Below are positions 378 to 34,565 of a stretch of 34,565 nucleotides of DNA, piece by piece. Below the pieces are notes generated by a model that did no database searches, was not told where the DNA came from, and saw nothing but the letters and a program-made list of their open reading frames with translations. This stretch comes from a virus (lineage: Duplodnaviria; Heunggongvirae; Uroviricota; Caudoviricetes), in the IMG/VR virus record IMGVR_UViG_2896595138_000002, positions 1 to 34,565 of that record. One strand, given 5' to 3'. Every line of letters begins with the position of its first letter. The first letter of the stretch is position 1. The position numbers and the translations under genes were made by a program.

Positions 378-578
378 GGTGATGGTAATAAAGAGCACTT
401 TTTTACGCCCTATTCTGTCGCCCATTTTGCCGAAAATAAATGCTCCGACAATACGCGCCACATAACCTGCACCATAGGTTCCCATTGCCAGAATTAACGC
501 CATTGCCGTTGATGATTCAGGAAAAAATATTTCATGAAACACTAACGCTGCGCCGAGCGAATATAACTGGAAATCCAT
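333..578 (-). pseudogene. ydfJ: MFS (metabolite:H+ symporter, ProP-like) transporter remnant; internal N-terminal-half fragment only
   Basis: 81-aa ORF with the FFP...GxxGDRxGRKKxL signature of the TM2-TM3 loop. A stop lies 2 codons upstream of the first Met and the fragment ends about 30 bp before ydfI, so about 300 C-terminal codons are missing. Confidence 0.6.
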
Positions 579-1362: not shown

Positions 1363-1502
1363 ATGAAATCAAAAGACACCCTAAAGTGGTTCCCTGCGCA
1401 GCTTCCTGAAGTAAGAATTATCCTAGGGGATGCTGTAGTGGAAGTAGCAAAACAGGGAAGACCTATCAATACCAGAACATTGCTTGATTACATTGAAGGA
1501 AA
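1363..1502 (+). pseudogene. Small prophage protein (YdfK/YnaE-like), 3'-truncated at a deletion junction with the J gene
   Basis: ORF 1330..1635 begins MKSKDTLKWFPAQLPEV (from the internal Met) and loses protein-like character near 1502, where minus-strand J homology begins. Identity is from memory only. Confidence 0.4.
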
Positions 1503-3246
1503 CCGTCATCGTTCTCACGGATACTCACACAGCGGAACAGGCGCTGGCGCAACGTCGGCAACTTCAGCCCCCATACGCTGTATCCGGCAACGCCGTCAGG
1601 AACACGGCTCACTTTTACCTTCACGCCGTCGGTGACGGACTGAACCTCCACGCTGACCGGATTGCCACTTCCGTCAACCAGGCTTATCAGCCTGGTGCCG
1701 GAGGATGGCAGCGTGATTTCACGGTCGAGCGTCAGCGTCCGGGTCTGGCTGTTTACCGCCAGCACGCGCCCGCCGATGCTGATACCGGCATAGTCATCAT
1801 CGCAGATTTCAATGACATCACCCGGTACATGGCGAAGCCCTTCTGCGCCCACGCTGAAGTCCACGGTCTGCGTTTCCAGCAGTTCCGTTTTAATCAGCCA
1901 CAGCCCGGCGCGGTGTGCCTGCCCCCGGCTGGTACAGCCAAAGGCATCCATCTTCGTGACATTACGACCGTAACGGGCAATGGCCTGCGTATCTTCAACA
2001 AGCTCTGTCGCCGTCTCCCAGCCGTTGTTCGGGTCAATCCAGTTCACCTCAACGGCATTATGGCGGTCCTTCAGGGCGCTGAAGCTGTAGCGGAACGGCG
2101 CGCCATCATCCGGCATCACCACATTACTGCGGTTATAGGTCCACACCTTATCTGATGGTCGGTCCTGCACGAACGTCAGCGTCTGCCCGTTCCATACCGG
2201 CATACAGCGCATCGCCGAGCAGAAATCACTGAGCACATCCCACGCCTTACGCTGCGTGGTCAGCCAGGCATTACAGGTGATGCGCGGCTCCGTGCCGCCA
2301 AAACCGTCCGGCACCGACTGGTCGCAGTACTGGCCGATGACATACAGCGCCCATTTATCCACATCTGCCGCACCAAGACGTTTCCCCATGCCGTAGCGTG
2401 GATGGGTCAGCATATCCCACAGACACCAGGCCATGTTATTGCTGTATGCTGGCTTAAACGTTCCGTCCCAGATACCGCTGTATTGCCGCGTCTGCGGGTT
2501 ATAGTTCGACGGCACCTGCAGAATACGCCCGCGCAGATGATAATTACGGCTCACCTGCTGGCTGCCGAACTGCTCCGAATCCACCTGTACGCCGACCAGT
2601 GCCGTGTTCGGGTAGCACTGTTTCACATCGATGATTTCGGTGTATGACGACCAGAGCGTTTTGTTCTGCAGCTGGTCTGTGGTGCTGTCCGGCGTCATCC
2701 TGCGCATCCGGATATTGAACGGGCGCGGCGGCAGGTTACCCACCACCACCGATGCCAGATACTGTGAGGTGGTTTTGCCTTTAATGGTGATGTCTTTTTC
2801 CGTCACCCAGCCACCGTTACGCTGTATCTGAACCAGCAGGCGGACTTCCGACGGACTCCTGTCCCCCTTTGAGGTGGTTTCCACCAGTGCCTGCACACCG
2901 AAGGTCAGGCGCAGACGGTCGATATTTGCAGACGTGATGGTCCGGGTGATCGGCGTGTCATATTTCACTTCCGTACCCAGCACCGTCTCGGAGCCGGAGG
3001 ATTCAAATCCCTCCAGCGGAGTCTGCTCCTGCTCACCTGCCCGGAACACCACCGTGACGCCGGAGATATTGGTATTCCCCTCACTGTCCAGCACCGGCGT
3101 ACTGTTCAGCAGCACACTTTTTAATCCGTCCACCGGACCTTCAACCGGCCCTTCACTGATGACGTCTATCACGCTCAGCATCTGGGATGATTTCAGGTTG
3201 TCCTTCGCTTCGCGCGGGTATGCCCATTACTGCTACCTTTACCCAT
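1503..3246 (-). pseudogene. J: Lambda J-like tail tip / host-specificity protein, N-terminal ~580 codons only, with a frameshift near codon 10
   Basis: 571-aa ORF matches lambda gpJ N-terminus (LSVIDxISEGPxEGPVDGLKSVLLNSTPVLD...RCVSIRENDDG). The MGKGSSNGH start at 3246 is out of frame (GGG at 3216..3218 appears one base short). Homology ends at about 1503. Confidence 0.85.
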
Positions 3247-3306
3247 TCCTCACGCTCCATAAACGACAAAACCGCCCGGAGGCGGTTTCACATAAAACAT
3301 TTTGCA

Positions 3307-3954
3307 TCAACGACCAATCACCACAACCTGACCACCATCCCCTTCATCTGCCGTGCTGATCTCCTGAGAAACCACGCGTGACCCCACGCGCATTTCACCG
3401 TACAGAACAGGCAGAACATTGCCCTGGGCAACCATGTTATCCAGTGAGGAGAAATAGGTGTTCTGTTTGCCGTTATCTGTACTTGCTGCCGTGGGCGTCC
3501 TGGCTTTCGGTGCCAGCATCTGCGCCACTCCGCCCAGGATCATACTGGCCCCTGCCGCATACATGCCCGATACAGCCGCGGCACCCAGCCAGCCCACAGG
3601 GTTCCACCATGCCACCGCAATCAGCGCCGCCCCCAGCACCACCTGAAGCACACCGCCGCTTTTAGCTCCCGCCAGACGCGGCACGATGTGGATCACGGCA
3701 CCATTTGCCAGCGGCTCATTAAGACGGGCAGACAATTCGGTTTCACCTGCATCACGCCCGGCAATCCGTACCTGATACCAGCCGTCACTCAGTTTCTGAC
3801 GAAATGCCGGGACCTGTGTGGACAGCGCCCGGATGGCTTCAGCCCCCGTTTTTACACGAAGGTCGATGCGGCGGCCAAATCGTTGTAAATCCCCGTAAAG
3901 GCAGATGCGTGCCATGCCCGGTGACGCCAGAGGGAGTGTGTGCGTCGCTGCCAT
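3307..3954 (-). CDS. I: Lambda I-like tail assembly protein
   Basis: 215-aa ORF MAATHTLPLASPGMARICLYGDLQRFGRRIDLRV...GGQVVVIGR, gpI-like. Confidence 0.85.
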   Translation of the reverse strand: MAATHTLPLASPGMARICLYGDLQRFGRRIDLRVKTGAEAIRALSTQVPAFRQKLSDGWYQVRIAGRDAGETELSARLNEPLANGAVIHIVPRLAGAKSGGVLQVVLGAALIAVAWWNPVGWLGAAAVSGMYAAGASMILGGVAQMLAPKARTPTAASTDNGKQNTYFSSLDNMVAQGNVLPVLYGEMRVGSRVVSQEISTADEGDGGQVVVIGR

Positions 3955-4594
3955 TTGTCGGTATACCTCTCTCGTTTGCTCAGTTGTTCAGGAATATGGT
4001 GCAGCAGCTCGCCATCACCACAGTAAATGGCGGCATGATTCGGCACCGATGAACCAAAGCAGCACAGCAGCACGTCGCCAGGCTGCGCCTCTGTCAGTGC
4101 GACACGGTAAAAACCAGTCGCCTCCATATTGTCAAGATAGAGATTCTGACCGTTACGCCACCAGTCATCCCCGCGATGAAAATCCGGCATCTCAATCCCC
4201 GCCAGATGATAAGCATCCCGGAACAGCGTGTAACAGTCCGTCACCCCGTGCTCAAAGCGCCGCCCGGTGAGATGCGGCACACAGCGGAACTTGTGAATCG
4301 CCCCCCGGCAGACCAGCCACCACGGCAAATCACTCTGCACCTGCAGCCGCCGGTCAGCCTCACTCAGCCAGGGCAGACCACAGGGATGACTGTGGACCAG
4401 TGCCACAATCTCACCCTGCATCTCTGCCTGCAGCCAGTCTTCCGGCGACATCCGGAAATAATCCTCCGGCTCACCGGAAATATTCACGCAGGGAAAATAT
4501 CTTTCCCCTCCGGCGTGCTTACCACGAAGCCGCACGACTCCGCTGGCGCACATCGCCGGGCGTGCGCCAGAATCGCTGATTCTGTCTGTGTCAT
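3852..4594 (-). pseudogene. K: Lambda K-like tail assembly protein (JAB/MPN + NlpC/P60), frameshifted near codon 29
   Basis: MTQTESAILAHARRCAPAESCGFVVSTPEG from ATG at 4594 continues as GERYFPCVNISGEPE...HSHP... in another frame (ORF 3852..4637). The shift sits at a homopolymer, plus-strand C-run 4505..4508. Confidence 0.75.
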
Positions 4595-12856: not shown

Positions 12857-14121
12857 TCTTCTCCTCCTCTGTTGATTGTCGCAGTCCGGATTCAAATGCC
12901 GCAGCCGCCCAGGCGGGCGGTTTAAGACCGGCTGCACGGCGCTCCATCGTTTCACGGACCTGCTGGGCAAAAATTTCCTGATAGTCGTCACCGCGTTTTG
13001 CGCACTCTTTCTCGTAGGTACTCAGTCCGGCTTCTATCAGCATCACCGCTTCCTGTACTTCTTTCAGACCATCGATGGCCATACGACCGGAGCCTATCCA
13101 GTCACAGTTCCCCCAGGCGCTGCGGGCTTCCTGAAAGCTGAAACGCGCTTTTGAAGGTAACGTCACCACGCGGCGAACGATGGCCTCTTCCAGCCAGCAC
13201 AGAAACATCTGGCTCGCCTGACGGGATGCGACGAATTTTCGCCGCCCCATAAAGTACGCCCACGACTCGTTCGCACTGGCCCGTGCCGTGGAGTAGCTCA
13301 TCTGGGCGTAATTCCGGGAAAGCTGCTCATACGAGACACCCAGCCCGGCAGCGATATACCGCAACAGTGACTGCTCAAACACGGAGTAGCCGTTATCCGT
13401 GTCCTGAGCCGTCTGCAGGTTCAGTGAGTCCCCCGGCATCAGGTGCGGCACTTTTGCGCCTCCCAGACGGACCGGTGCTGCGGCGTAATACGCGGCAATT
13501 TCACCAATCCAGCCGGTCAGCTTGTCCCGCTGCTCCTTACTGTTCGCGCCCAGAATAAAATCCATCGCTGACTGCGTATCCAGCTCACTCTCAATGGTGG
13601 CGACATACATCGCCTTCACAATGGCGCTCTGCAGCTGCGTGTTCTGCAGTGTGTCGAGCATCTTCATCTGCTCCATCACGCTGTAAAACACATTTGCACC
13701 GCGGGTCTGCCCGTCCTCCACGGGTTCAAAAACGTGAATGAACGAGGCGCGCCCGCCGGGTAACTCACGGGGTATCCATGTCCATTTCTGCGGCATCCAG
13801 CCAGGATAGCCGTCCTCGCTGACGTAATATCCCAACGCCGCACCGCTGTCATTAATCTGCACACCGGCACGGCAGTTCCGGCTGTCGCCGGTATTGTTCG
13901 GGTTGCTGATGCGCTTCGGGCTGACCATCCGGAACTGTGTCCGGAACAGTCGCGAGGGACTGGTATCCCAGGTGGCCTGAACGAACAGTTCACCGTTAAA
14001 GGCGTGCATGGCCACACCTTCCCGAATCATCATGGTAAACGTGCGTTTCCGCTCAACGTCAATGCAGCAGCAGTCATCCTCGGCAAACTCTTTCCATGCC
14101 GCTTCAACCTCGCGGGAAAAA
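12837..14121 (-). pseudogene. B: Lambda B-like portal protein, 5'-truncated (about 105 N-terminal codons missing) by IS insertion
   Basis: ORF 12837..14165: gpB homology runs from ...FSREVEAAWKEFAEDDCCCIDVERKRTFTMMIREGVAMHAFNGELF... to ...EEEKSDSRAA; the first ~14 codons of the ORF are IS600-derived. Confidence 0.85.
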
Positions 14122-14941
14122 TTTCGCACGTATAAACATCTTTGATGCCAGCGAGGTACAACCATCCCTCCTGTGTGGCAACATACGTCAGGTCCGCCAC
14201 CCAGACCTGATTTGGTGCTGTAGGAGCGAACGTCTGGTTCAGCAGATTTGGCGCAACTGGCAGATTGTGGTTCGGGTTCGTAGTCGCTCTGAACTTGCGT
14301 TTCTGCTTACAGCGTAGCCTTAGCTCCTTACGAAGACGTGCCAGTCGGTCACGACCAACGATGATGCCATTCTCTGCCAGCTCCGTCTGGAGCCGCCGGG
14401 TTCCATATGTTTCGCGAGTGCGGATATGTGCCACCTTAATCTCCAGTTTTAGCCGCTCATCACTTTGTTTTCTGTCTGAGGGTTCATGCTGTACCCAGTT
14501 GTAATAACCGCTCCTGGATACACCAAATACCTGACACATCGCTTCAATGGGAAATTGTTGTCGCCATTGTTCGATTAACGCGTATTTTTCAGCGACTCCT
14601 GTGCAAAATACGCTGTTGCTTTTTTTAATATATCTCGCTCAAGGCGAGCTTCATTTAACGCCTTACGCAGTTGCAGAATTTCAGATTCCAGTTCAGCCAC
14701 CGTGCGGGAACCAGGAGTACCGAGCCCTTTTCTGGCGGCGGTAACCCATTGTCCTAAAGTGCCTTCAGGAAGGGATAATCGGGAAGCGCCTTCACTGATC
14801 GAAAGTTGATTTTCAAGAACCGTTCTGACAGCTTCGGCTTTGAACTCTTTAGAGTAACGTTGGGTTTTTCTGCTCATTATTAGCTCCTTCTGATGCCATT
14901 CTATTTCAGGAAGGAGTGTCCGTTAAACTCAGGCTACCTCA
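14122..14941 (-). mobile_element. IS600 (IS3 family), partial copy 1: left end + orfA + about 140 codons of orfB
   Basis: Left-end sequence TGAGGTAGCCTGAGTTTAACGGACACTCC (RC at 14919..14941); orfA at 14575..14877; identity to the other copies stops at 14122 where portal sequence begins. Confidence 0.85.
14575..14877 (-). CDS. IS600 OrfA (helix-turn-helix transposase subunit)
   Basis: 100-aa ORF MSRKTQRYSKEFKAEAVRTVLENQLSISEGASRLSLPEG...KKATAYFAQESLKNTR; A7 run at plus 14620..14626. Confidence 0.9.
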   Translation of the reverse strand: MSRKTQRYSKEFKAEAVRTVLENQLSISEGASRLSLPEGTLGQWVTAARKGLGTPGSRTVAELESEILQLRKALNEARLERDILKKATAYFAQESLKNTR

Positions 14942-15872
14942 GACTTTTGCTGGCCCGAAGACCAAATCCGAAGCGCCCGTTCTTTTCATCACGAAAGTTT
15001 TGCTCTATCTGCATTCGCCGACTGTATAACTTGATGATTTCTCGCGCTCTGAAGTCATTTGTACTGCTGAAGATCAACCAGGCTTCTTTTGCTGATTTGC
15101 TCTGTTCTTTGTCTGTTTTGTTTAAACCACTCTGACCTTTCGAACGTTTCTTTTTTCGCCCTTTTGCCGATTTCTTATAGGTGTAAAAATGCCCCCGGAT
15201 GCTTTTTTTCCTTTCTTTAACCAGCCTTCCAGCCCCCATATATTCCGGTGTTTTACATTCAGGGCTATCCGACACTTTTAACCATCTTTCAGGCGCGTTA
15301 TCGAGGCAATACTGAACGTTATTTCTGATCCGACCAATAAAATCCCAGCCCAGAGAAGTAATATGGTGAAACCATGCGCTCTGAAATCCAGCATCCGTGA
15401 CAATAATAACCCTGGCATCGGGGGGCAGGGATTGAGCAAGGGAATCAAGGAAATCATGTTGTATCAATGGATTATTTTGTTTTTCAGAAGGAACAACCTT
15501 ACTCAATAACGGAATGGAACGCCCGTCACACAGAAGGCTGGCACGAAGAACATGATGCTCCTGGGAGGGATAGCCACTCCAGTCTACGGCTATTACACAT
15601 AAAGATAACTGCCGTGTCAGCATTGAAGTGATATTCCTGAAAATCATTGGAATATCGCGATGGAGCGCCTCATTACCCATGAGGCGATCAATACGTTTGA
15701 TCTTATTCTTAACTTGTGCATTACCCGGCAAAAAACGTCCGATACTGGTCAGCGTCAGAGATGCTCCGTTGATTAACGCCACTGTGGCATCCATCAGGGC
15801 ATTTTGTCGGTACTGATGAAATGGTGCTAAGGCATCCCGGAAGAAATTCTGACATACTTTATGAACAGGCAT
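14942..15872 (-). pseudogene. IS10-like DDE transposase, C-terminal ~80 aa missing
   Basis: Homology ends at the IS600 junction, about 14941. Confidence 0.7.
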
Positions 15873-15954
15873 AGCAGTGATCTCATTGAATTGTTGGCAC
15901 AAATCAGTAGATCACATAATGCTATGTCTGTCTCGTTTTCTGGGGATTCCTCAG
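14942..15954 (-). mobile_element. IS4-family (IS10-like) element fragment, 3'-truncated by IS600 copy 1
   Basis: Transposase ORF 14934..15902 with IS10-like motifs (IKRIDRL, VDWS, LRAS, DAGF, KGRKKKRS, IYSKRMQIEQNFRD); terminus CTGAGGAATCCCC (RC) at about 15942..15954. Confidence 0.7.
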
Positions 15955-20502: not shown

Positions 20503-20810
20503 TGCTGGTTCAGAGTTAAAAAAACTATTATTTTTTTCATATGTTACCGTAATATGTGAGTATCCATCGACTAGACACTAAGCAAAAAAGCTCCCGAAGG
20601 AGCCTTCATTTTCACTTTCTTAAATCTAACGACAGATGGCTAACATTTAAGTATTGTGAAATATTATCAAATGTAATCATCATTGATTTACAAAAGATAC
20701 ATTTTGCCCCGAAAGGATTTCTGTCAGAAACATCAAAAGATGTTGTTCTATACTGAGAACCATGGCAACACGGGCATCTAAAGTGAATATGGTTTGTAAT
20801 ATTTTCTACC

Positions 20811-21023
20811 TCAAAGTGCCACTACATGAACAGCTGCAGGGCCTTTAGGTCCGTTCTCAATACCAAATTCGACTTCCTGATTCTCAGTTAACGTTTTGAA
20901 ATCGTTGCTCTGAATAGCTGAGAAATGCACAAACACATCTTTGCTACCATCTTTCGGCGTGATGAAACCAAAACCTTTTTCAGGGTTAAACCATTTCACT
21001 AAACCAGTCATTTTGTTAGACAT
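20811..21023 (-). CDS. cspI: Cold-shock protein, CspA family
   Basis: 70-aa [70 protein letters not shown]; RNP1/RNP2 motifs. Confidence 0.9.
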
Positions 21024-21083
21024 TATTATTACCTTTTGAAGAAGTTACCCTTAAGATTTCAAGGATTTTGACTCATGGAAGAG

Positions 21084-22348
21084 TGAGGTAGCCTGAGTTT
21101 AACGGACACTCCTTCCTGAAATAGAATGGCATCAGAAGGAGCTAATAATGAGCAGAAAAACCCAACGTTACTCTAAAGAGTTCAAAGCCGAAGCTGTCAG
21201 AACGGTTCTTGAAAATCAACTTTCGATCAGTGAAGGCGCTTCCCGATTATCCCTTCCTGAAGGCACTTTAGGACAATGGGTTACCGCCGCCAGAAAAGGG
21301 CTCGGTACTCCTGGTTCCCGCACGGTGGCTGAACTGGAATCTGAAATTCTGCAACTGCGTAAGGCGTTAAATGAAGCTCGCTTTGAGCGAGATATATTAA
21401 AAAAAAGCAACAGCGTATTTTGCACAGGAGTCGCTGAAAAATACGCGTTAATCGAACAATGGCGACAACAATTTCCCATTGAAGCGATGTGTCAGGTATT
21501 TGGTGTATCCAGGAGCGGTTATTACAACCGGGTACAGCATGAACCCTCAGACAGAAAACAAAGTGATGAGCGGCTAAAACTGGAGATTAAGGTGGCACAT
21601 ATCCGCACTCGCGAAACATATGGAACCCGGCGGCTCCAGACGGAGCTGGCAGAGAATGGCATCATCGTTGGTCGTGACCGACTGGCACGTCTTCGTAAGG
21701 AGCTAAGGCTACGCTGTAAGCAGAAACGCAAGTTCAGAGCGACTACGAACCCGAACCACAATCTGCCAGTTGCGCCAAATCTGCTGAACCAGACGTTCGC
21801 TCCTACAGCACCAAATCAGGTCTGGGTGGCGGACCTGACGTATGTTGCCACACAGGAGGGATGGTTGTACCTCGCTGGCATCAAAGATGTTTATACGTGC
21901 GAAATTGTCGGCTACGCCATGGGAGCGCGCATGACAAAAGAGCTGACAGGTAAAGCCCTGTTTATGGCGCTCAGGAGCCAGCGCCCACCTGCCGGGCTAA
22001 TCCACCACCCTGATCGAGGTTCACAGTACTGCGCATACGATTACCGGGTCATACAGGAGCAGTTTGGTCTGAAAACATCAATGTCGCGTAAAGGTAACTG
22101 TTACGACAACGCTCCGATGGAAAGCTTCTGGGGAACGCTGAAAAATGAGAGCCTGAGCCACTATCGTTTTAATAACCGGGATGAAGCCATCTCAGTAATA
22201 CGGGAATACATTGAGATTTTCTACAATCGTCAGCGTCGTCACTCTCGTCTGGGGAATATCTCCCCGGCAGCCTTCAGGGAAAAATATCATCAGATGGCTG
22301 CTTAAAAAAAGAACAAATGGTAGTGTCCGCTATTGCCAGTACACCTCA
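21084..22348 (+). mobile_element. IS600 copy 2, complete, flanked by 3-bp direct repeat GAG
   Basis: Ends TGAGGTAGCCTGAG... and ...GCCAGTACACCTCA; GAG at 21081..21083 and 22349..22351; 1265 bp. Confidence 0.9.
21148..22305 (+). CDS. IS600 transposase as a single fused OrfAB reading frame (385 aa)
   Basis: A8 run at 21399..21406 (A7 in copies 1 and 3) joins orfA to orfB in one frame: ...DILKKSNSVFCTGVAEKYALIEQWRQQFPIEAMCQVFGVSR...; DDE domain present. Confidence 0.85.
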   Translation: MSRKTQRYSKEFKAEAVRTVLENQLSISEGASRLSLPEGTLGQWVTAARKGLGTPGSRTVAELESEILQLRKALNEARFERDILKKSNSVFCTGVAEKYALIEQWRQQFPIEAMCQVFGVSRSGYYNRVQHEPSDRKQSDERLKLEIKVAHIRTRETYGTRRLQTELAENGIIVGRDRLARLRKELRLRCKQKRKFRATTNPNHNLPVAPNLLNQTFAPTAPNQVWVADLTYVATQEGWLYLAGIKDVYTCEIVGYAMGARMTKELTGKALFMALRSQRPPAGLIHHPDRGSQYCAYDYRVIQEQFGLKTSMSRKGNCYDNAPMESFWGTLKNESLSHYRFNNRDEAISVIREYIEIFYNRQRRHSRLGNISPAAFREKYHQMAA

Positions 22349-25097: not shown

Positions 25098-25433
25098 ATG
25101 AAGTGGATTGTGATTGATACAGTTATCCAGCCATCATGCGGAATATCTTTTTCAGTCATATGGAGTAAAATAAAATTAATAATCTGGTATCAATCGGATG
25201 CTTTCTTACCTCCTGAAAGTATATTTACACTGACTCACACAGGCATCATGCTCAATAACAAAGTGCTACCTGTAACCATTTACAACGTAGTACCATTCAA
25301 TAAAACATTCTGGAATTTAATCAAAAACAGCCAGGAATGCCCTACAAATACAGATAACGTATTGAATGAATGCTTTAATAACCGTTGCACTCTGCAAATA
25401 TGTCCTTATGGACTAAAACAACAAAGTCCATAA
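25098..25433 (+). CDS. Hypothetical Cys-rich 111-aa protein in an AT-rich island
   Basis: AGGA SD 6 nt before ATG; six Cys including [26 protein letters not shown]; no recognisable family. Confidence 0.35.
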
Positions 25434-25451
25434 GGAGTTTACTCACATCTG

Positions 25452-25489
25452 ACAAAATCAATATAAACAGCCCCTCCGGAGAGGGCTGG
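25452..25489 (-). terminator. Rho-independent terminator-like hairpin (minus strand)
   Basis: Near-palindrome CAGCCCCTCCGGAGAGGGCTGG followed on the minus strand by TTTATATTGATTTTGT. Confidence 0.45.
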
Positions 25490-26087
25490 AGAGTGGCGCT
25501 ATGTGCCATTGCATGGTGCCGGGTGCCTCCCGGTGAATTCAGTACCAGCACCTGAATCCGCGATTATCCCATATACCTACTCGCTGATTTCCCCTCCGCA
25601 CAGGGGGATTCACCATGCCAGTTTCTTTTAACAAACTCCCGCAAACCAGACAACAGTCAACCGCCTGAATTGTGAAGTATTTAAAAATTTCTCCCGCTAA
25701 CTGATACCCGGCTAACAGTCTGGCGTTTTCTTTTTCAGCAACGGGAAAGCAACAACCACCACACCCGCCACCAGCACACCGTCAGCCAGCACTGACATTA
25801 TCCGGCTGCTGCAATGCCATTCACAAAAACAGTAAGCAATCACTTTTTACCGTAACAGGTGATAATCCAGATATGTATCCTGAGGTGTACTGGCAATAGC
25901 GGACACTACCATTTGTTCTTTTTTTAAGCAGCCATCTGATGATATTTTTCCCTGAAGGCTGCCGGGGAGATATTCCCCAGACGAGAGTGACGACGCTGAC
26001 GATTGTAGAAAATCTCAATGTATTCCCGTATTACTGAGATGGCTTCATCCCGGTTATTAAAACGATAGTGGCTCAGGCTCTCATTTT

Positions 26088-26741
26088 TCAGCGTTCCCAG
26101 AAGCTTTCCATCGGAGCGTTGTCGTAACAGTTACCTTTACGCGACATTGATGTTTTCAGACCAAACTGCTCCTGTATGACCCGGTAATCGTATGCGCAGT
26201 ACTGTGAACCTCGATCAGAGTGGTGGATTAGCCCGGCAGGTGGGCGCTGGCTCCTGAGCGCCATAAACAGGGCTTTACCTGTCAGCTCTTTTGTCATGCG
26301 CTCTCCCATGGCGTAGCCGACAATTTCGCACGTATAAACATCTTTGATGCCAGCGAGGTACAACCATCCCTCCTGTGTGGCAACATACGTCAGGTCCGCC
26401 ACCCAGACCTGATTTGGTGCTGTAGGAGCGAACGTCTGGTTCAGCAGATTTGGCGCAACTGGCAGATTGTGGTTCGGGTTCGTAGTCGCTCTGAACTTGC
26501 GTTTCTGCTTACAGCGTAGCCTTAGCTCCTTACGAAGACGTGCCAGTCGGTCACGACCAACGATGATGCCATTCTCTGCCAGCTCCGTCTGGAGCCGCCG
26601 GGTTCCATATGTTTCGCGAGTGCGGATATGTGCCACCTTAATCTCCAGTTTTAGCCGCTCATCACTTTGTTTTCTGTCTGAGGGTTCATGCTGTACCCAG
26701 TTGTAATAACCGCTCCTGGATACACCAAATACCTGACACAT
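26088..26741 (-). CDS. IS600 OrfB (DDE integrase domain), 3' end frameshifted
   Basis: ORF ends ...ESFWER*, other copies read ...ESFWGTLKNESLSHYRF...; C-run 26089..26091 is 3 long. Confidence 0.8.
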   Translation of the reverse strand: MCQVFGVSRSGYYNWVQHEPSDRKQSDERLKLEIKVAHIRTRETYGTRRLQTELAENGIIVGRDRLARLRKELRLRCKQKRKFRATTNPNHNLPVAPNLLNQTFAPTAPNQVWVADLTYVATQEGWLYLAGIKDVYTCEIVGYAMGERMTKELTGKALFMALRSQRPPAGLIHHSDRGSQYCAYDYRVIQEQFGLKTSMSRKGNCYDNAPMESFWER

Positions 26742-26776
26742 CGCTTCAATGGGAAATTGTTGTCGCCATTGTTCGA

Positions 26777-27079
26777 TTAACGCGTATTTTTCAGCGACTC
26801 CTGTGCAAAATACGCTGTTGCTTTTTTTAATATATCTCGCTCAAGGCGAGCTTCATTTAACGCCTTACGCAGTTGCAGAATTTCAGATTCCAGTTCAGCC
26901 ACCGTGCGGGAACCAGGAGTACCGAGCCCTTTTCTGGCGGCGGTAACCCATTGTCCTAAAGTGCCTTCAGGAAGGGATAATCGGGAAGCGCCTTCACTGA
27001 TCGAAAGTTGATTTTCAGGAACCGTTCTGACAGCTTCGGCTTTGAACTCTTTAGAGTAACGTTGGGTTTTTCTGCTCAT
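26777..27079 (-). CDS. IS600 OrfA
   Basis: 100-aa ORF identical in pattern to copy 1 except L20P (RTVPENQ). Confidence 0.9.
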   Translation of the reverse strand: MSRKTQRYSKEFKAEAVRTVPENQLSISEGASRLSLPEGTLGQWVTAARKGLGTPGSRTVAELESEILQLRKALNEARLERDILKKATAYFAQESLKNTR

Positions 27080-27258
27080 TATTAGCTCCTTCTGATGCCA
27101 TTCTATTTCAGGAAGGAGTGTCCGTTAAACTCAGGCTACCTCAACAGGATGGACTTAGCAATGGCTGCTCCTGGCACAAAGCGGACAGTGATCACCGTTC
27201 TTACGACTACTTTCTGACTTCCTTCGTGACTTGCCCTAAGCATGTTGTAGTGCGATAC

Positions 27259-27282
27259 TTGTAATGACATTTGTAATTACAA
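27259..27282 (+). promoter_or_regulatory. relBE operator-like inverted repeats (TTGTAAT-N-ATTACAA) in the relB promoter region
   Basis: cTTGTAATgacatTTGTAATTACAAg 13 bp upstream of the relB start. Confidence 0.65.
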
Positions 27283-27294
27283 GAGGTGTAAGAC

Positions 27295-27534
27295 ATGGGT
27301 AGCATTAACCTGCGTATTGACGATGAACTTAAAGCGCGTTCTTACGCCGCGCTTGAAAAAATGGGTGTAACTCCTTCTGAAGCGCTTCGTCTCATGCTCG
27401 AGTATATCGCTGACAATGAACGCTTGCCGTTCAAACAGACACTCCTGAGTGATGAAGATGCTGAACTTGTGGAGATAGTGAAAGAACGGCTTCGTAATCC
27501 TAAGCCAGTACGTGTGACGCTGGATGAACTCTGA
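27295..27534 (+). CDS. relB: RelB antitoxin
   Basis: 79-aa ORF MGSINLRIDDELKARSYAALEKMGVTPSEALRLMLEYIADNERLPFKQTLLSDEDAELVEIVKERLRNPKPVRVTLDEL. Confidence 0.95.
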   Translation: MGSINLRIDDELKARSYAALEKMGVTPSEALRLMLEYIADNERLPFKQTLLSDEDAELVEIVKERLRNPKPVRVTLDEL

Positions 27535-27821
27535 TGGCGTATTTTCTGGATTTTGACGAGCGGGCACTAAAGGAATGGCGAAAGCTGGGCTCGACGGTAC
27601 GTGAACAGTTGAAAAAGAAGCTGGTTGAAGTACTTGAGTCACCCCGGATTGAAGCAAACAAGCTCCGTGGTATGCCTGATTGTTACAAGATTAAGCTCCG
27701 GTCTTCAGGCTATCGCCTTGTATACCAGGTTATAGACGAGAAAGTTGTCGTTTTCGTGATTTCTGTTGGGAAAAGAGAACGCTCGGAAGTATATAGCGAG
27801 GCGGTCAAACGCATTCTCTGA
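27534..27821 (+). CDS. relE: RelE mRNA interferase toxin
   Basis: 95-aa ORF MAYFLDFDERALKEWRKLGSTVREQLKKKLVEVLESPRIEANKLRGMPDCYKIKLRSSGYRLVYQVIDEKVVVFVISVGKRER...; ATGA overlap with relB. Confidence 0.95.
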   Translation: MAYFLDFDERALKEWRKLGSTVREQLKKKLVEVLESPRIEANKLRGMPDCYKIKLRSSGYRLVYQVIDEKVVVFVISVGKRERSEVYSEAVKRIL

Positions 27822-27892
27822 ACCAAAGCATGACATCTCTGTTTCGCACCGAAGGTGACACTTCTGCTTTGCGTTGACAGGAGAAGCAGGCT

Positions 27893-28048
27893 ATGAAGCA
27901 GCAAAAGGCGATGTTAATCGCCCTGATCGTCATCTGTTTAACCGTCATAGTGACGGCACTGGTAACGAGGAAAGACCTCTGCGAGGTACGAATCCGAACC
28001 GGCCAGACGGAGGTCGCTGTCTTCACAGCTTACGAACCTGAGGAGTAA
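27893..28048 (+). CDS. hokD: Hok-family type I toxin (HokD/RelF-like), 51 aa
   Basis: MKQQKAMLIALIVICLTVIVTALVTRKDLCEVRIRTGQTEVAVFTAYEPEE, translated directly from the sequence (below the ORF-track size cutoff). Confidence 0.85.
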   Translation: MKQQKAMLIALIVICLTVIVTALVTRKDLCEVRIRTGQTEVAVFTAYEPEE

Positions 28049-28116
28049 GAGACCCGGCGAGTGAGAAATCCCTCGCCACCTCTGATGTGGCAGGCATCCT
28101 CAACGCACCCGCACTT

Positions 28117-28147
28117 AACCCGCTTCGGCGGGTTTTTGTTTTTATTT
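28117..28147 (+). terminator. Rho-independent terminator after hokD
   Basis: AACCCGCttcgGCGGGTTTTTGTTTTTATTTT. Confidence 0.75.
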
Positions 28148-28265
28148 TCAACGCATTTGAAATTCTGGATGGTGCCGGAATAGAATCAAAAATACTTAAG
28201 TAGCGCGCAGGGATAAGAGGGATGGACCCCGAACAGGGGAGTGCTATTTATCTGGAAGGATTCTG

Positions 28266-28517
28266 ATGATGAACATCGAAGAACTGCGTAAAATTTTTTG
28301 TGAAGATGGCCTCTATGCTGTGTGCGTTGAAAATGGAAATATTGTTAGTCATTACCGCATTGTGTGTTTGCAAAAAAATGGGGCTGCGTTAATTAATTTT
28401 GTGGATGCCCGAGTGACGGACGGATTTATCTTGCGCGACGGTGAGTTTGTCACTTCATTACAGGCATTGAAAGAGATCGGAATAAAAGCTGGCTTTTCTG
28501 CTTTTTCAGAAGAATAA
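28266..28517 (+). CDS. rem: Small prophage protein of unknown function (Rem-like position and size)
   Basis: 83-aa ORF immediately downstream of relBE-hokD, as for rem in Qin; identity by position and length only. Confidence 0.5.
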   Translation: MMNIEELRKIFCEDGLYAVCVENGNIVSHYRIVCLQKNGAALINFVDARVTDGFILRDGEFVTSLQALKEIGIKAGFSAFSEE

Positions 28518-28582
28518 ACTCATCTACAATCTTGCGCGGGCTGAACTCCCGCTGAGTAACACCGTGCCACCGGAGAAAACCG

Positions 28583-28861
28583 ATGGCACGCAACGCAAAA
28601 TATTACAATCATGATAATTCGACCGTTCTTGCCCACACGCACGAGCGGTATTCTCACGCATTTAAGTCAGACTGGTACCAGCATCCCTCATGCACTGAAG
28701 AACAGGCCGAATGGCTCATTCAGTGTTACCGCAGGCGCGGATGCGAGGTTAAAAAAGCCCTTAGCCTCGACTACCGTCACTGGATAATCTCCGTCAGGCT
28801 CCCTTACTCCGAACAGCCACCGCGTCCGTCCCGCACATTCCAGCAACGGATCTGGAGGTAA
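28583..28861 (+). CDS. Hypothetical 92-aa protein, stop/start-coupled to the following gene
   Basis: ORF ends TAA 1 nt before the GTG start of the next gene; Cys/His-containing. Confidence 0.4.
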   Translation: MARNAKYYNHDNSTVLAHTHERYSHAFKSDWYQHPSCTEEQAEWLIQCYRRRGCEVKKALSLDYRHWIISVRLPYSEQPPRPSRTFQQRIWR

Positions 28862-28862
28862 C

Positions 28863-29912
28863 GTGCGGGTATTACTTCGACCTGTTCTGGTTCCGGAACT
28901 CGGGCTGGTGGTCCTTAAGCCCGGTCGTGAATCCATGCCGGTATTCCACAATACCCGGTTACTGGTGGAGCCGGAACCGAAAAGCATGCGTAATCTGCCG
29001 TCCGGGGTCGTTCCTGCCGCTCGCCAGCCGCTGGTGGAAGACAAAACATTGCTGCCGTTTTTCAGTAACGCACGGGTGATTCGTGCTGCTGGTGGTGCTG
29101 GTGCATTGTCTGACTGGCTGTTGCGCCATATTAAATCCTGCCAGTGGCCACACGGCGATTATCATCACAGCGAAACCGTCATTCACCGTTATGGTACCGG
29201 CGCAATGGTGTTGTGCTGGCACTGCGACAACCAGCTGCGTGACCAGACATCCGAATCACTCGAGCAACTTGCTCATCAAAACCTGTCAGCATGGATGATT
29301 GACGTCATCGGTCACGCAATAAGCGGTACGCAGGAGCGTGAACTATCTCTGGCTGAATTATCCTGGTGGGCGGTCCGCAATCAGGTGGCGGACGCGCTAC
29401 CGGAAGCGGTATTACGTCGTTCGCTGGGGTTGCGTGCGGAAAAAATCCGCTCAATGTTCCGTGAAAGCGACATCGTACCGGGAGAGCAGACCGCCACCAG
29501 CATACTGAAACAGCGCACAAAAAATCTTGCGCCGCTGCCTCACGCCCACCAGCAACAGAACCCACCACAGGAAAAGACGGTGGTCAGCATTGCCGTTGAT
29601 CCTGAGTCTCCGGAATCTTTCATGAAACGACCTAAACGTCGCCGCTGGGTTAACGAGAAATACAAACGCTGGGTGAAGACACAGCCGTGTGCGTGTTGTG
29701 GTAAGCCAGCCGACGATCCCCATCACCTGATTGGTCATGGTCAGGGCGGAATGGGGACAAAATCTCACGATATTTTCACGCTACCGCTGTGTCGGGAGCA
29801 TCACAACGAGCTTCATGCGGATCCTCTGGCGTTCGAAGAAAAGCATGGTTCTCAGGTTGATTTAATTTTTCGTTTTCTTGATCACGCCTTTGCAACTGGC
29901 GTGCTTGGGTAA
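28863..29912 (+). CDS. ydfU: DUF968-like protein with C-terminal HNH-type Cys/His motif (YdfU-like)
   Basis: 349-aa ORF; ...QPCACCGKPADDPHHLIGHGQGGMGTKSHDIFTLPLCREHHNELH...; sits between rem and rusA/Q. Confidence 0.6.
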   Translation: MRVLLRPVLVPELGLVVLKPGRESMPVFHNTRLLVEPEPKSMRNLPSGVVPAARQPLVEDKTLLPFFSNARVIRAAGGAGALSDWLLRHIKSCQWPHGDYHHSETVIHRYGTGAMVLCWHCDNQLRDQTSESLEQLAHQNLSAWMIDVIGHAISGTQERELSLAELSWWAVRNQVADALPEAVLRRSLGLRAEKIRSMFRESDIVPGEQTATSILKQRTKNLAPLPHAHQQQNPPQEKTVVSIAVDPESPESFMKRPKRRRWVNEKYKRWVKTQPCACCGKPADDPHHLIGHGQGGMGTKSHDIFTLPLCREHHNELHADPLAFEEKHGSQVDLIFRFLDHAFATGVLG

Positions 29913-29924
29913 AAGAGGTGACTG

Positions 29925-30282
29925 ATGCTCATAGATTTGGTTTTACCTTACCCGCCGACGGTGAACACTTACTGGCGACGCCGTGGCAGCACATATTTTA
30001 TCTCGGAGGAGGGAAAGCGTTATCGCCGGGCTGTGGCGCTTATTGTTCGCCAGCAGCGGCTGAAATTAAGCCTGTCCGGAAGGCTGGCGATAAAGGTGAT
30101 TGCAGAGCCACCGGATAAGCGTCGTCGCGACCTGCGACAATATCCTGAAAGCACCGCTGGATGCGCTGACGCATACGGGAGTGTTAATGGACGATGAGCA
30201 GTTTGATGAAATCAATATCGTTCGTGGTCAGCCAGTATCTGGTGGACGTCTGGGGGTGAAGATTTACCCCATAATGCATTAA
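29925..30282 (+). pseudogene. rusA: RusA-like Holliday junction resolvase, frameshifted
   Basis: ORF 29925..30197 (MLIDLVLPYPPTVNTYWRRRG...EPPDKRRRDL) then ORF 30100..30282 (...DNILKAPLDALTHTGVLMDDEQFDEINIVRGQPVSGGRLGVKIY) in the +1 frame; single-base insertion near 30121. Confidence 0.75.
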
Positions 30283-30296
30283 GAGCAGGTCAAAAA

Positions 30297-31118
30297 ATGA
30301 AACTGGAAGATTTACCGAAATACTACTCCCCAAAATCCCCTGGCCTGACCGATGCATCGGCCTCAACGTCAAAAGATGCGCTGAGTATCACTGATGTGAT
30401 GGCCGCGCAGGGCATGACACAGAATCGGGCTGAGATGGGTTTTTCTGCGTTCCTGGGGAAAATGGGCATCAGTATGAATGACAGGGCGCGGGCAACAGAA
30501 TTACTGGCAGATTATGCACTCAGTCGGTGCGATCGTGTGGCGGCGTTGAGAAAACTTCCGGCAGAAATAAAACCGGTAGTGATGCGCATTATGGCTTCGT
30601 ACGCTTTTGAGGATTATGCCCGCAGCGCAGCGAGTAAAAAGCAGTGCCCTTGTTGCTATGGGGAAAAATTTATTGAAAGCATAGTTTTTACAAACAAGGT
30701 CCAGTATCCGGATGGTAAGCCGCCGGTATGGGCAAAGTGTACGAAAGGTGTGTATCCGTCTTACTGGGAAGAATGGAAAAAAGTCAGGGAGGTGGTAAAA
30801 GTTGCCTGTCCGGAGTGTGGCGGAAAGGGTGAGGTTTCCACCGCCTGTAAGGATTGCCGTGGGCGTGGTGTCGCCATTCATCGTGAAGAGTCGGTAAAAC
30901 GTGGTATGCCTGTTATCAGAGACTGCCAGCGTTGTGGTGGTCGTGGCTATGAAAGACTACCATCAACGGAGGCATTTAATGCTATATGCGAGGTGACAAA
31001 CCAGATAACACGCGCGTCATGGGAAAAAACAGTTAAGAAATTTTATGATGCGCTGGTGACCCGGTTTGATATTGAAGAAGCATGGGCTGAGCGGCAGTTA
31101 AAAAAGGTAACTAGGTAA
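30297..31118 (+). CDS. Late-gene antiterminator Q-like protein with DnaJ-type CxxCxGxG zinc-finger repeats
   Basis: 273-aa ORF just upstream of a promoter/terminator pair and tRNAs; motifs CPECGGKG, CKDCRGRG, CQRCGGRG; placement after rusA typical of lambdoid Q. Confidence 0.6.
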   Translation: MKLEDLPKYYSPKSPGLTDASASTSKDALSITDVMAAQGMTQNRAEMGFSAFLGKMGISMNDRARATELLADYALSRCDRVAALRKLPAEIKPVVMRIMASYAFEDYARSAASKKQCPCCYGEKFIESIVFTNKVQYPDGKPPVWAKCTKGVYPSYWEEWKKVREVVKVACPECGGKGEVSTACKDCRGRGVAIHREESVKRGMPVIRDCQRCGGRGYERLPSTEAFNAICEVTNQITRASWEKTVKKFYDALVTRFDIEEAWAERQLKKVTR

Positions 31119-31131
31119 CAAGGTAACAAGG

Positions 31132-31159
31132 TTGATTTTTCCGGAATCTGTGGTAAATT
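31132..31159 (+). promoter_or_regulatory. Candidate late promoter (PR'-like): TTGATT-16 nt-TAAATT with TG extension
   Basis: Motif match 14 bp after the Q stop codon. Confidence 0.4.
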
Positions 31160-31208
31160 CGTCATAACGATGGGCGTTTTATGCCTGACGTTAGAAGAGT
31201 TTCTACAA

Positions 31209-31232
31209 CCCGCCGCTGAGCGGATTTTTTAT
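31209..31232 (+). terminator. Candidate tR'-like terminator (short GC stem + T-run)
   Basis: CCGCtgaGCGG then ATTTTTTATT. Confidence 0.35.
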
Positions 31233-31269
31233 TGCGAAATTAATTACGGACCGTTATTATTCTGCTCCC

Positions 31270-31345
31270 GGCCCTTTAGCTCAGTGGTGAGAGCGAGCGA
31301 CTCATAATCGCCAGGTCGCTGGTTCAAATCCAGCAAGGGCCACCA
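31270..31345 (+). tRNA. ileZ: tRNA with CAU anticodon (Ile2/ileZ-like, or Met)
   Basis: 76 nt GGCCCTTTAGCTCAGTGGTGAGAGCGAGCGACTCATAATCGCCAGGTCGCTGGTTCAAATCCAGCAAGGGCCACCA; cloverleaf folds with a 7-bp acceptor stem and encoded CCA. Confidence 0.85.
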
Positions 31346-31443
31346 TCACAAACCGGCATTAGCTTATCAGGAAGAGCAGACGACACGATAACAGGGTTGT
31401 TGGTGCGGGGCGGGTCCCGATGGCGGTCCATTATCGGTATTCA

Positions 31444-31520
31444 GCGTTGTTAGCTCAGCCGGACAGAGCAATTGCCTTCTAAGCAATCGGTCACTGGTTC
31501 GAATCCAGTACAGCGCGCCA
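31444..31520 (+). tRNA. argN: tRNA-Arg (anticodon UCU), argN/argU-like
   Basis: 77 nt GCGTTGTTAGCTCAGCCGGACAGAGCAATTGCCTTCTAAGCAATCGGTCACTGGTTCGAATCCAGTACAGCGCGCCA; anticodon loop CTTCTAA. Confidence 0.85.
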
Positions 31521-31630
31521 TATTCATTCTTCCAGATTCCTTCCGGCAGAGCCTTATACTGAAATATACTTGGCTCAGGATATTGTTGAAAATATTATAT
31601 GTTTGTCAAAAATAAAAGTTCTGTTAAGTA

Positions 31631-31984
31631 TTGATTGAGTATTTGTTATACGGTCTAATGGTTTTTTCAGCATTAAATATTTATCATTCATATGGTGCGG
31701 GTAGAGTGAATATTGATGAGGCGTCGGGGTGTTTCATCCTTAGGCAGCGTATTGATATAGTCAATGCAGCACGAGCAAAGGCCTTCAGCCGTTTGACAGT
31801 TTTGTTCTGTACTCCTGATCGTCTTTCGGGAAGAGACGTTATTATTCTGAATAGTGATGCTATACAGAGGGTTTGCGATGAGTTCATGGTTGCTAATTCA
31901 GAATTATTTGCTCTTGTTCAGGAGTACAACAGAATAGCCAGGACCTGTGGTATGGATGAACTTCGGATTACTCATCTGGGGTAG
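31631..31984 (+). CDS. Hypothetical protein (117 aa) in the Q/tRNA moron slot, probably 3'-truncated by IS600
   Basis: AT-rich ORF; its stop codon TAG ends 1 nt before the IS600 left end; no recognised family; first in-frame ATG at 31658. Confidence 0.35.
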   Translation: MIEYLLYGLMVFSALNIYHSYGAGRVNIDEASGCFILRQRIDIVNAARAKAFSRLTVLFCTPDRLSGRDVIILNSDAIQRVCDEFMVANSELFALVQEYNRIARTCGMDELRITHLG

Positions 31985-31985
31985 A

Positions 31986-33250
31986 TGAGGTAGCCTGAGT
32001 TTAACGGACACTCCTTCCTGAAATAGAATGGCATCAGAAGGAGCTAATAATGAGCAGAAAAACCCAACGTTACTCTAAAGAGTTCAAAGCCGAAGCTGTC
32101 AGAACGGTTCCTGAAAATCAACTTTCGATCAGTGAAGGCGCTTCCCGATTATCCCTTCCTGAAGGCACTTTAGGACAATGGGTTACCGCCGCCAGAAAAG
32201 GGCTCGGTACTCCTGGTTCCCGCACGGTGGCTGAACTGGAATCTGAAATTCTGCAACTGCGTAAGGCGTTAAATGAAGCTCGCTTTGAGCGAGATATATT
32301 AAAAAAAAGCAACAGCGTATTTTGCACAGGAGTCGCTGAAAAATACGCGTTAATCGAACAATGGCGACAACAATTTCCCATTGAAGCGATGTGTCAGGTA
32401 TTTGGTGTATCCAGGAGCGGTTATTACAACCGGGTACAGCATGAACCCTCAGACAGAAAACAAAGTGATGAGCGGCTAAAACTGGAGATTAAGGTGGCAC
32501 ATATCCGCACTCGCGAAACATATGGAACCCGGCGGCTCCAGACGGAGCTGGCAGAGAATGGCATCATCGTTGGTCGTGACCGACTGGCACGTCTTCGTAA
32601 GGAGCTAAGGCTACGCTGTAAGCAGAAACGCAAGTTCAGAGCGACTACGAACCCGAACCACAATCTGCCAGTTGCGCCAAATCTGCTGAACCAGACGTTC
32701 GCTCCTACAGCACCAAATCAGGTCTGGGTGGCGGACCTGACGTATGTTGCCACACAGGAGGGATGGTTGTACCTCGCTGGCATCAAAGATGTTTATACGT
32801 GCGAAATTGTCGGCTACGCCATGGGAGAGCGCATGACAAAAGAGCTGACAGGTAAAGCCCTGTTTATGGCGCTCAGGAGCCAGCGCCCACCTGCCGGGCT
32901 AATCCACCACTCTGATCGAGGTTCACAGTACTGCGCATACGATTACCGGGTCATACAGGAGCAGTTTGGTCTGAAAACATTAATGTCGCGTAAAGGTAAC
33001 TGTTACGACAACGCTCCGATGGAAAGCTTCTGGGGAACGCTGAAAAATGAGAGCCTGAGCCACTATCGTTTTAATAACCGGGATGAAGCCATCTCAGTAA
33101 TACGGGAATACATTGAGATTTTCTACAATCGTCAGCGTCGTCACTCTCGTCTGGGGAATATCTCCCCGGCAGCCTTCAGGGAAAAATATCATCAGATGGC
33201 TGCTTAAAAAAAGAACAAATGGTAGTGTCCGCTATTGCCAGTACACCTCA
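31986..33250 (+). mobile_element. IS600 copy 4, complete, no target-site duplication
   Basis: Both termini present; flanks AGA / TCA differ; 1265 bp. Confidence 0.9.
32050..33207 (+). CDS. IS600 fused OrfAB transposase (385 aa)
   Basis: A8 run at 32301..32308, as in copy 2. Confidence 0.85.
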   Translation: MSRKTQRYSKEFKAEAVRTVPENQLSISEGASRLSLPEGTLGQWVTAARKGLGTPGSRTVAELESEILQLRKALNEARFERDILKKSNSVFCTGVAEKYALIEQWRQQFPIEAMCQVFGVSRSGYYNRVQHEPSDRKQSDERLKLEIKVAHIRTRETYGTRRLQTELAENGIIVGRDRLARLRKELRLRCKQKRKFRATTNPNHNLPVAPNLLNQTFAPTAPNQVWVADLTYVATQEGWLYLAGIKDVYTCEIVGYAMGERMTKELTGKALFMALRSQRPPAGLIHHSDRGSQYCAYDYRVIQEQFGLKTLMSRKGNCYDNAPMESFWGTLKNESLSHYRFNNRDEAISVIREYIEIFYNRQRRHSRLGNISPAAFREKYHQMAA

Positions 33251-33531
33251 TCATGCTGTACAGTATCTGGTTTTTGTCGTTCTCCCCCAGTTCAAACCAG
33301 GTCACCACACCTTTCACCCGCCGCTGTACGTCATCGCCCTGCCATACCGTCAGGTATGGCCATTTTGTCCAGCACCTGCGCAAATTCAAGGGAAAGAAAC
33401 TGCTGACTGACCAGAGAAAGGTCGAGGGAAAAAAGTGAAGAGAGTGACTGGGTGAGATGAAAGGAAACCACCGCAAAAGCATCCGGTGGCAGGCCGTCCA
33501 CTTCCAGTGTGAAACGTAATCCGGTTGACAT
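33251..33531 (-). pseudogene. vgrG: VgrG (type VI secretion spike) N-terminal fragment, frameshifted and truncated by IS600
   Basis: MSTGLRFTLEVDGLPPDAFAVVSFHLTQSLSSLFSLDLSLVSQQFLSLEFAQVLDKMA then YLTVWQGDDVQRRVKGVVTWFELGENDKNQILYSM in the other frame; GGAGG SD before ATG at 33531; homology stops at the IS600 boundary. Confidence 0.7.
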
Positions 33532-34565
33532 AGCAACCTCCGTGAAAATGAATAATAATCCGCACATATTGCATGTACAACATGTCGGGCGGATGAGATA
33601 AGCGAGTCGACATCTGGCGTTACCGGGGAATATCAGAAAAATGTCATGGTTATGTGATGATTTAGTCTGGGATTTTACTTCAGAGAAACGGGTGTCTGTT
33701 TAGTCAACAAAATAATCACAAACGCAACGGATGGGTTCTCGACGTTATTCACGACAGGCTCGTACATTACAGCGAGTAATAAAAAACCTGATATGCAAAG
33801 TCAAACCAATATTCATAATGTCTTTTTATTCACAACAATAAATAATTCAATAACAATCATTGAAATGAATGATGGTTTGTATAAGGAATATACGCTACCG
33901 CCCCACTCTGATAACATGATCTGCACATTGCCATCTTAACGTCGTTAAACACTGGCTTAATAGTGGATATTTCAAATTAGGAATTTATTAAATTCACCTG
34001 ATGAATATAATAAGCAAATAGCATAGAAAATAATGACAACTCCCTCCGAGAGGACCATTTCCAAAGCACTGCACCACCACCTGGTGCCCGGATGATCTTG
34101 CTTCAGTGGTAAGAGTACCTGATTCATTGTTCCCAAAATGGTGTTTTCCCCTGCCCCTCCAATAATGTGTAGCTCTCACTTGATAATCTATTGATTAGGT
34201 TATATTAAGAATCAATATTTAAAATACATCCATTTCCTTGAATAAATCAACATGTTTATTTATCAATTGCTGTTTTAGCTCTGACTCATCAAGCTCTCCA
34301 TATTTGTACTACAGATAATCGCGAATAAATACAGAGAACGCCATTTATCCTTTTAGCATACCTGCCGGATATTTTTATTTGTATTAATATTAATTGCATC
34401 TCCAAGTCCGAGCATATCCATCATTAAAAACATTTTGAGATTATAGAATACCTGTGATAACAAGAGAAACATCTGCACAATGTGAATAGTTAGTTTCTTT
34501 TCAGAGGAAATGAAATAGACAAGCTGAATGAAAGGGAGAGTGATATAAATTAAAAAACATAACAT

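Follow-up and report, generated by a model that had tools for sequence, protein, structure and literature searches.

The vgrG fragment at the right end of the 34,565-bp stretch of viral DNA analysed here (the window; its features are collected in Table 1) is a non-functional scar that consists of the first 93 codons of the gene and still lies in its native position, while the foreign partner at the junction is the prophage at the Qin site. The joint between prophage and vgrG is best modelled as the outcome of two inversion steps rather than of one fusion, and we regard this explanation of the scar as probable. No working T6SS role is expected of the remnant. The host is probably Shigella boydii, judging from the 100% identity of the window over 11.2 kb to the 4.93-Mb chromosome CP026845.1 and from the name 'DUF5445 family protein [Shigella boydii]' under which the window's exact YncH allele is publicly recorded.

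Table 1. Features of the window in order of position (strand relative to the sequence as presented)
Feature	Position	Strand	Evidence and remarks
ydfI', ydfJ' remnant, prophage tail and head genes	left end of the window	-	
IS600 copy 1, truncated	14120-14941	-	
nohA, gnsB, cspI	right of copy 1	-	
IS600 copy 2	21084-22348	+	GAG target duplication
rzpQ, rrrQ, ydfR, holin, iraM-like gene, STnc100	right of copy 2	mostly -	
TCC, half of split target duplication	25878-25880	+	IS600 first inserted between tRNA-Arg and the DUF3927/iraM region
IS600 copy 3	25881-27143	-	1263 bp; 7 A; 1-nt deletion in orfB G run
Prophage segment relB, relE, hokD, rem, ydfU, rusA (truncated), Q antiterminator, tRNA (CAT), tRNA-Arg	27144-31985	+	
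ydfV 5' part	27144-27270	-	within the prophage segment 27144-31985
AGA (reverse complement of TCT), other half of split duplication	31983-31985		left flank of copy 4
IS600 copy 4	31986-33250	+	1265 bp; both terminal repeats intact
vgrG' and yncH	33251-34565	-	
vgrG 5' remnant, pseudogene	33251-33531	-	alignment to intact E. coli vgrG; translation; Pfam Phage_GPD
Perfect 8-bp hairpin GCCATACC-TGAC-GGTATGGC	33341-33360	-	due to the +1 insertion at 33357 (A on the sense strand)
yncH-vgrG intergenic region, native, 821 bp	33532-34352	.	36.9% GC; no gene annotated in RefSeq E. coli records
Shine-Dalgarno sequence GGAGG of vgrG	33537-33541	-	read from the sequence; 5-nt spacer to the ATG
yncH, intact, 70 aa, DUF5445	34353-34565	-	Pfam 131.9 bits; 30% GC

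The identity and extent of the remnant were established by alignment to the intact vgrG of E. coli strain 07-4299 (locus L001). The homologous stretch begins upstream of the start codon (ATG at 33531-33529, minus strand) and ends exactly at base 33251, the right inverted repeat of IS600 (...ACACCTCA) ending at 33250. What is left of the gene amounts to 280 native nucleotides (93 codons) and one inserted base. Orthology to the yncH-linked vgrG of E. coli is indicated by DNA that is 98% identical in the remaining 280 nt and upstream of them, by the same 821 bp upstream of the gene and by the shared neighbours yncH, yncG and ansP; moreover, the 1315 bp from 33251 to 34565 are covered to at least 80% in 2974 of 5426 complete E. 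coli genomes. After correction of the frameshift, the 93 residues match positions 2-65 of the 305 positions of Pfam Phage_GPD (30.9 bits; cut-off 30.1 bits), while the intact orthologue matches positions 2-303 (249.9 bits) and possesses Phage_base_V and Gp5_trimer_C as well. The remnant, which reaches position 65 only, hence lacks a complete gp27-like N-terminal domain, and since its vgrG sequence stops at codon 93 it has neither the gp5 OB-fold (Phage_base_V) nor the C-terminal beta-helix (Gp5_trimer_C). No further vgrG or rhs DNA was found within the window.

An earlier note, made from the letters alone, had described a vgrG-like 5' fragment on the minus strand with a good Shine-Dalgarno sequence, which agrees with the ATG, the GGAGG motif, the sequence identity and the Phage_GPD match given above. 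The note also assigned to the fragment about 107 codons ending at the IS boundary. The end point is right, but the number of codons is really 93, the larger figure arising because an out-of-frame ORF (33204-33536) continues into IS600. The internal frameshift suspected near 33350 exists as a +1 insertion at 33357. The vgrG frame is thereby interrupted by a stop after 66 aa, and the present ORF is 66 aa long.

The order of the E. coli locus, ...ansP-yncG-yncH-vgrG-rhs-(immunity/H-repeat genes), with no hcp close by, implies that vgrG is at home here and that its 'orphan' state is normal: the gene is an orphan by nature, heading a vgrG-rhs island beside yncH, apart from the hcp/T6SS core. In EDL933, rhsE sits downstream of its own vgrG (PMC7216683). 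The yncH-linked vgrG-rhs (RhsE) island of E. coli occupies the same chromosomal position by yncG and yncH and is likewise distant from hcp and the T6SS core, in keeping with the previous remark that no such genes are nearby; neither hcp nor other T6SS genes are present in the window or within 10 kb on both sides of it. Compared with that island, however, the window keeps only 93 of 702 codons, and the remainder of the gp27 domain, the OB fold, the spike and the rhs effector are missing at this position. The rhsE locus of E. coli K-12 has decayed from this island as well and retains an intact yncH, but there a plain deletion, with no IS or inversion, took vgrG together with the 5' half of rhsE, and the window ceases to match K-12 at 33599, 68 bp ahead of the vgrG ATG. 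The comparison of locus order with K-12 that had been suggested is accordingly useful for the order itself but poor for vgrG, which K-12 does not have.

On the yncH side, the about 1 kb of AT-rich DNA that had been taken as non-coding is so over its intergenic part, but the rest is the intact gene yncH, whose start codon forms the final three bases of the window. A search of 33200-34565 against Rfam gave no match, and promoter-like sites in the same interval showed no excess over chance. To the right of the window in CP026845.1, pqqU, which encodes a TonB-dependent receptor (L003, 2991-5251), is broken up into ORFs of 375 and 378 aa and is probably a pseudogene, and mnaT is followed by an IS transposase gene some 9 kb past the window end.

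The element that abuts the remnant, IS600 copy 4, has the termini TGAGGTAGCC...ACACCTCA and a length of 1265 bp, as expected for IS600 (about 1264 bp, terminal inverted repeats TG...CA). Features annotated as 'IS3-like element IS600 family transposase' share 97-98% identity with it, and it encodes the transposase domains HTH_Tnp_1 (70.5 bits) and rve (DDE; 88.3 bits). Its flanks, AGA to the left and TCA to the right, do not form a 3-bp target-site duplication, which is the expected result for a recombinant copy. Copy 3 has no target duplication either; copy 2 has GAG on both sides, and this clean duplication indicates that the IS boundaries used here are right. Of the sequences flanking copy 4, the left one belongs to the prophage at the Qin site (in ydfJ) and the right one to the native yncH-vgrG locus. 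Both the rearrangement breakpoint and the joining of a prophage to a vgrG/rhs-type locus by IS600, as they had been proposed, are thus supported.

The way in which the two sides came together can be deduced from the flanks of the IS copies. Copies 3 (minus strand) and 4 (plus strand) constitute an inverted pair around 27144-31985, and the segment between them is inverted relative to the remaining prophage. When the tRNA-side flank of copy 4 is reverse-complemented and set beside the lysis-side flank of copy 3, the two form one contiguous match in intact E. coli prophages, where the sequence reads ...GTATCTACCCC... (1110 genomes cover at least 80% of the synthetic junction). The flanks overlap by TC(T/C), suggesting that an IS600 first entered at TCT and that its recombination with an inverted copy then flipped relB-Q-tRNA; the two halves of the split duplication (TCC and TCT) differ by one mismatch. 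The other flank of copy 3, window base 27144, corresponds to K-12 position 1,646,023, in ydfV codon 42. In the state that preceded the flip between copies 3 and 4, vgrG' must have adjoined ydfV'.

The orientation of the surrounding genes bears on how that earlier junction arose. The convergent genes ydfI and vgrG are separated by 103-128 kb in K-12 and in E. coli UMB200201_11. The window has both in one orientation and keeps ydfI-ydeE, together with the entire late prophage region, beside the prophage. Such an order cannot result from a deletion, but it can from an inversion through IS600 copies in vgrG and ydfV. Placed on the K-12 map, and assuming a K-12-like ancestral order, the inferred inverted block extends over 1.528-1.646 Mb (about 118 kb) and contains dif (1,590,750-1,590,777), which is 62.8 and 55.3 kb away from the two breakpoints. 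All sequenced Shigella chromosomes are reported to carry IS-mediated inversions at oriC and terC and nested re-inversions, IS600-mediated ones included (PMC1550401), and a block that spans dif fits this habit of IS-mediated, roughly symmetric terminus inversions. For instance, those between S. flexneri 5b 8401 and 2a 301 occurred by recombination between inverted IS copies, among them IS600 (PMC1550401), and as here the breakpoints have no target duplications, re-inversion is nested and the terminus is spanned. The present case differs in that the reciprocal junction was not seen. One literature search specific for the joining of vgrG codon 93 to ydfV in the Qin-site prophage gave no match.

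The same observations bear on a simpler scenario, a single IS600-mediated deletion between vgrG codon 93 and the prophage, after which the rest of vgrG and rhs would be gone. Such an event would agree with the failure of every search to recover the vgrG remainder and with the frequency of IS-flanked deletions in Shigella. It does not account for vgrG' and yncH being inverted relative to ydfI and the prophage by comparison with K-12 and UMB200201_11, nor for ydfI-ydeE and the late prophage region, which lie between the two K-12 positions and are nevertheless still next to the prophage; moreover, in CP049278.1 vgrG' is joined to ydfV' with the prophage reading away. We therefore consider a deletion of this kind distinctly improbable, and the simple model is rejected on the gene orientations annotated in K-12 and UMB200201_11. 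The vgrG remainder may have been lost after the inversion.

According to the two-inversion model, inverted IS600 copies in vgrG and in ydfV of the prophage would have recombined in a first step and inverted the dif-containing block of about 118 kb (K-12 coordinates), which would have produced the order yncH-vgrG'-IS600-ydfV'-relB...Q-tRNA-lysis-tail-ydfJ'-ydfI. In a second step, recombination between the junction IS600 and another IS600, situated between tRNA-Arg and the lysis module (target TCT), would have turned the 4.8-kb relB-Q-tRNA segment round, giving the order of the window, lysis-copy 3-relB..Q..tRNA-copy 4-vgrG'. A third, later step, restricted to this strain, would be a template switch at a quasi-palindrome that added the base at 33357 to an already dead remnant. 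More than two rearrangements may have been involved, and the vgrG remainder may since have been moved or deleted. About 8 kb beyond the left end of the window, a truncated ydeE is followed by an IS3-family element.

The successive states predicted by this model are represented among relatives that share the YncH allele. An exact look-up of the window's YncH returned nine other loci that fall into three classes. Four loci (L024, L029, L026 and L032) are ancestral in form, with an intact vgrG of 702-726 aa; rhs follows vgrG in the first two, which are 99.5% identical to the window, and the loci of the other two stop within or at vgrG. In another four assemblies (CP119446.1, JARKNR01, CP026846.1 and CP026877.1) the arrangement is that of the window, and the breakpoint is identical, with ...TACAGCATGA on one side and TGAGGTGT... 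on the other. The ninth locus, in CP049278.1, is intermediate and reads yncH-vgrG'-IS600-ydfV'-relB-relE-hokD-rem-ydfU, and the flank of its IS600 at IRL (CATTGCTAAGTCCATCCTGT) is identical to the IRL flank of window copy 3. The identical breakpoint between vgrG' and IS600 is thus shared by five related complete or near-complete assemblies, the last four and CP049278.1. For tracing CP049278.1 beyond ydfU, IraM is too widespread, and among long contigs the RusA allele of the window occurs in the source genome alone.

Since CP049278.1 possesses the intermediate that the two-inversion model predicts, a misassembly is very unlikely. The earlier note had allowed for an intact vgrG continuing across a misassembled repeat, that is, a misjoin across the 1.26-kb IS600 repeats, and four copies within 34 kb make misjoins conceivable, all the more as a segment between inverted repeats can be placed either way round. 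However, the identical junction in the five further assemblies, four of them of 4.7-5.1 Mb (CP119446.1, CP026846.1, CP026877.1 and CP049278.1), speaks against that case, as do the exchange of flanks at the exact IS boundaries with a split target duplication and the expected behaviour of short-read assemblies, in which the relB-Q segment is interrupted at each IS end. An artefact here seems to us barely credible.

We also looked for the missing part of vgrG, as had been proposed. The reciprocal junction, in which the 3' part of vgrG, IS600, the 3' part of ydfV and flxA would follow one another, was not found. The predicted junction of IS600 with vgrG nucleotide 278 had no matches in species-representative genomes; the window's own junction had none there either, indicating that this collection contains no close relative. 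A search with VgrG residues 94-702 revealed no fragment of 610 aa or less on a megabase contig among the best 120 homologues, and none of the four predicted remainder ORFs was found in the protein collection by exact look-up.

The inserted base at 33357 has a history of its own. The wild-type sequence, GCC-TACC TGAC GGTATGGC, is a quasi-palindrome with one unpaired T, and the insertion turns it into a perfect hairpin. None of the five sister genomes that share the truncation has the insertion, nor do the intact relatives; over this 1.3 kb, one substitution is the only other difference between the window and CP026877.1. The same insertion with the same 66-aa product does occur in E. coli with a full-length vgrG annotated as 'frameshifted', where carriers are rare (5 of the 3382 complete genomes with this stretch match all 71 nt exactly) and reside on at least four unrelated flanking haplotypes, none of them closest to the window. 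Judging from these sequence comparisons, the best reading appears to be a recurrent template-switch mutation at the quasi-palindrome, private to this strain within its lineage, while an assembly error is possible but less likely, the site not being a homopolymer. Mutations of this type have been described in E. coli (PMC7202029), in which an imperfect inverted repeat is made perfect by a templated single-base insertion that recurs at one site; the window case differs in being known from comparative genomics alone and in affecting a natural gene, here already dead DNA. One could also suppose that vgrG had come from an E. coli-like ancestor as a frameshifted pseudogene before IS600 cut it, as the identical insertion and product in full-length E. 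coli genes might suggest. Given the five sister genomes and the intact relatives without the insertion, as well as the carriers on at least four haplotypes of which none is closest to the window, this is very improbable, and a frameshift older than the truncation was rejected because the sister genomes have the same IS600 breakpoint without it.

The IS600 copies themselves show further variation. In copy 4, a run of 8 A at 32301-32308 joins orfA and orfB into a single ORF of 385 aa (32050-33207), instead of the usual two-frame arrangement of IS600 with -1 frameshifting at A7G. Copy 2 also has 8 A and a continuous 385-aa ORF, whereas copies 1 and 3 have 7 A. Copies 2 and 4 have two linked substitutions in common (alignment columns 299 and 446), and each of the 385-aa transposase sequences is found in one place only in the whole gene collection. 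An 8-A run is the best match in 2 of the 628 E. coli records with IS600; 8 A at the junction copy is also present in one sister assembly, but that assembly is homopolymer-noisy. The 8-A runs could be real or could be homopolymer assembly errors. Two further readings are doubtful: that the +1 site in vgrG is a true recurrent quasi-palindrome hotspot at which yncH-linked vgrG is repeatedly silenced in natural E. coli and Shigella populations, and that the 8-A copies are natural mutants making a constitutive fused OrfAB transposase, which might help to explain four IS600 copies within 34 kb. Near its right end, the junction IS600 comes in two variants, GGTAGTATCAGC and GGTAGTGTCCGC, in a comparison of L025, L028 and L031 with L023, L027 and L030. 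Which variant is present does not track the orientation of the relB-Q segment, a hint that IS copies have undergone gene conversion or that relB-Q has flipped repeatedly.

A vgrG pseudogene made by IS600 at the breakpoint of nested inversions belongs to a well-known kind of event and counts as ordinary genome decay in Shigella. The value of the site is that it records, base by base, the erosion of a T6SS effector island by IS600 and the reshuffling of the terminus in one Shigella lineage. Its ancestral, intermediate and final states are all extant in public genomes, so that it can serve as a lineage marker and as a clean example for teaching, and the recurrent frameshift that perfects a hairpin is a small natural case of template-switch mutagenesis.

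Several other features of the window can be mentioned. Copy 1 of IS600 is without its right 441 bp and adjoins a PF01609-type transposase gene (14934-15902) inside the head/terminase region of the prophage. Copy 2 lies about 60 bp upstream of the cspI start codon, within the 5' UTR region that matches the Rfam cspA thermoregulator (105 bits; window 20780-21131), and cspI has probably lost its native promoter and leader to it. In copy 3, the deletion in the G run of orfB leaves a truncated ORF of 217 aa; next to this copy, just inside the prophage, an iraM/PmrD-like gene of 111 aa, whose exact protein is listed in 34,862 contig-collection blocks, and a match to the STnc100 sRNA (117 bits) lie side by side within 25098-25647. 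Deletions show that the prophage is clearly defective. Relative to K-12 and strain 2018-05-5CC, they are seen at three window positions, 351/352, 1503 and about 5085: the first, of 1.2 kb, removed the ydfI start and most of the ydfJ remnant; the second, of 7.5 kb, removed pinQ, tail fibre genes, lom and part of J; and the third, of 1.45 kb, joins the tape-measure and tail-L genes. Finally, the prophage tRNA at 31270-31345 is called Met (CAT) by ARAGORN and tRNA-Ile in its RefSeq orthologue, and is presumably of the lysidine-modified Ile2 type common in lambdoid prophages.
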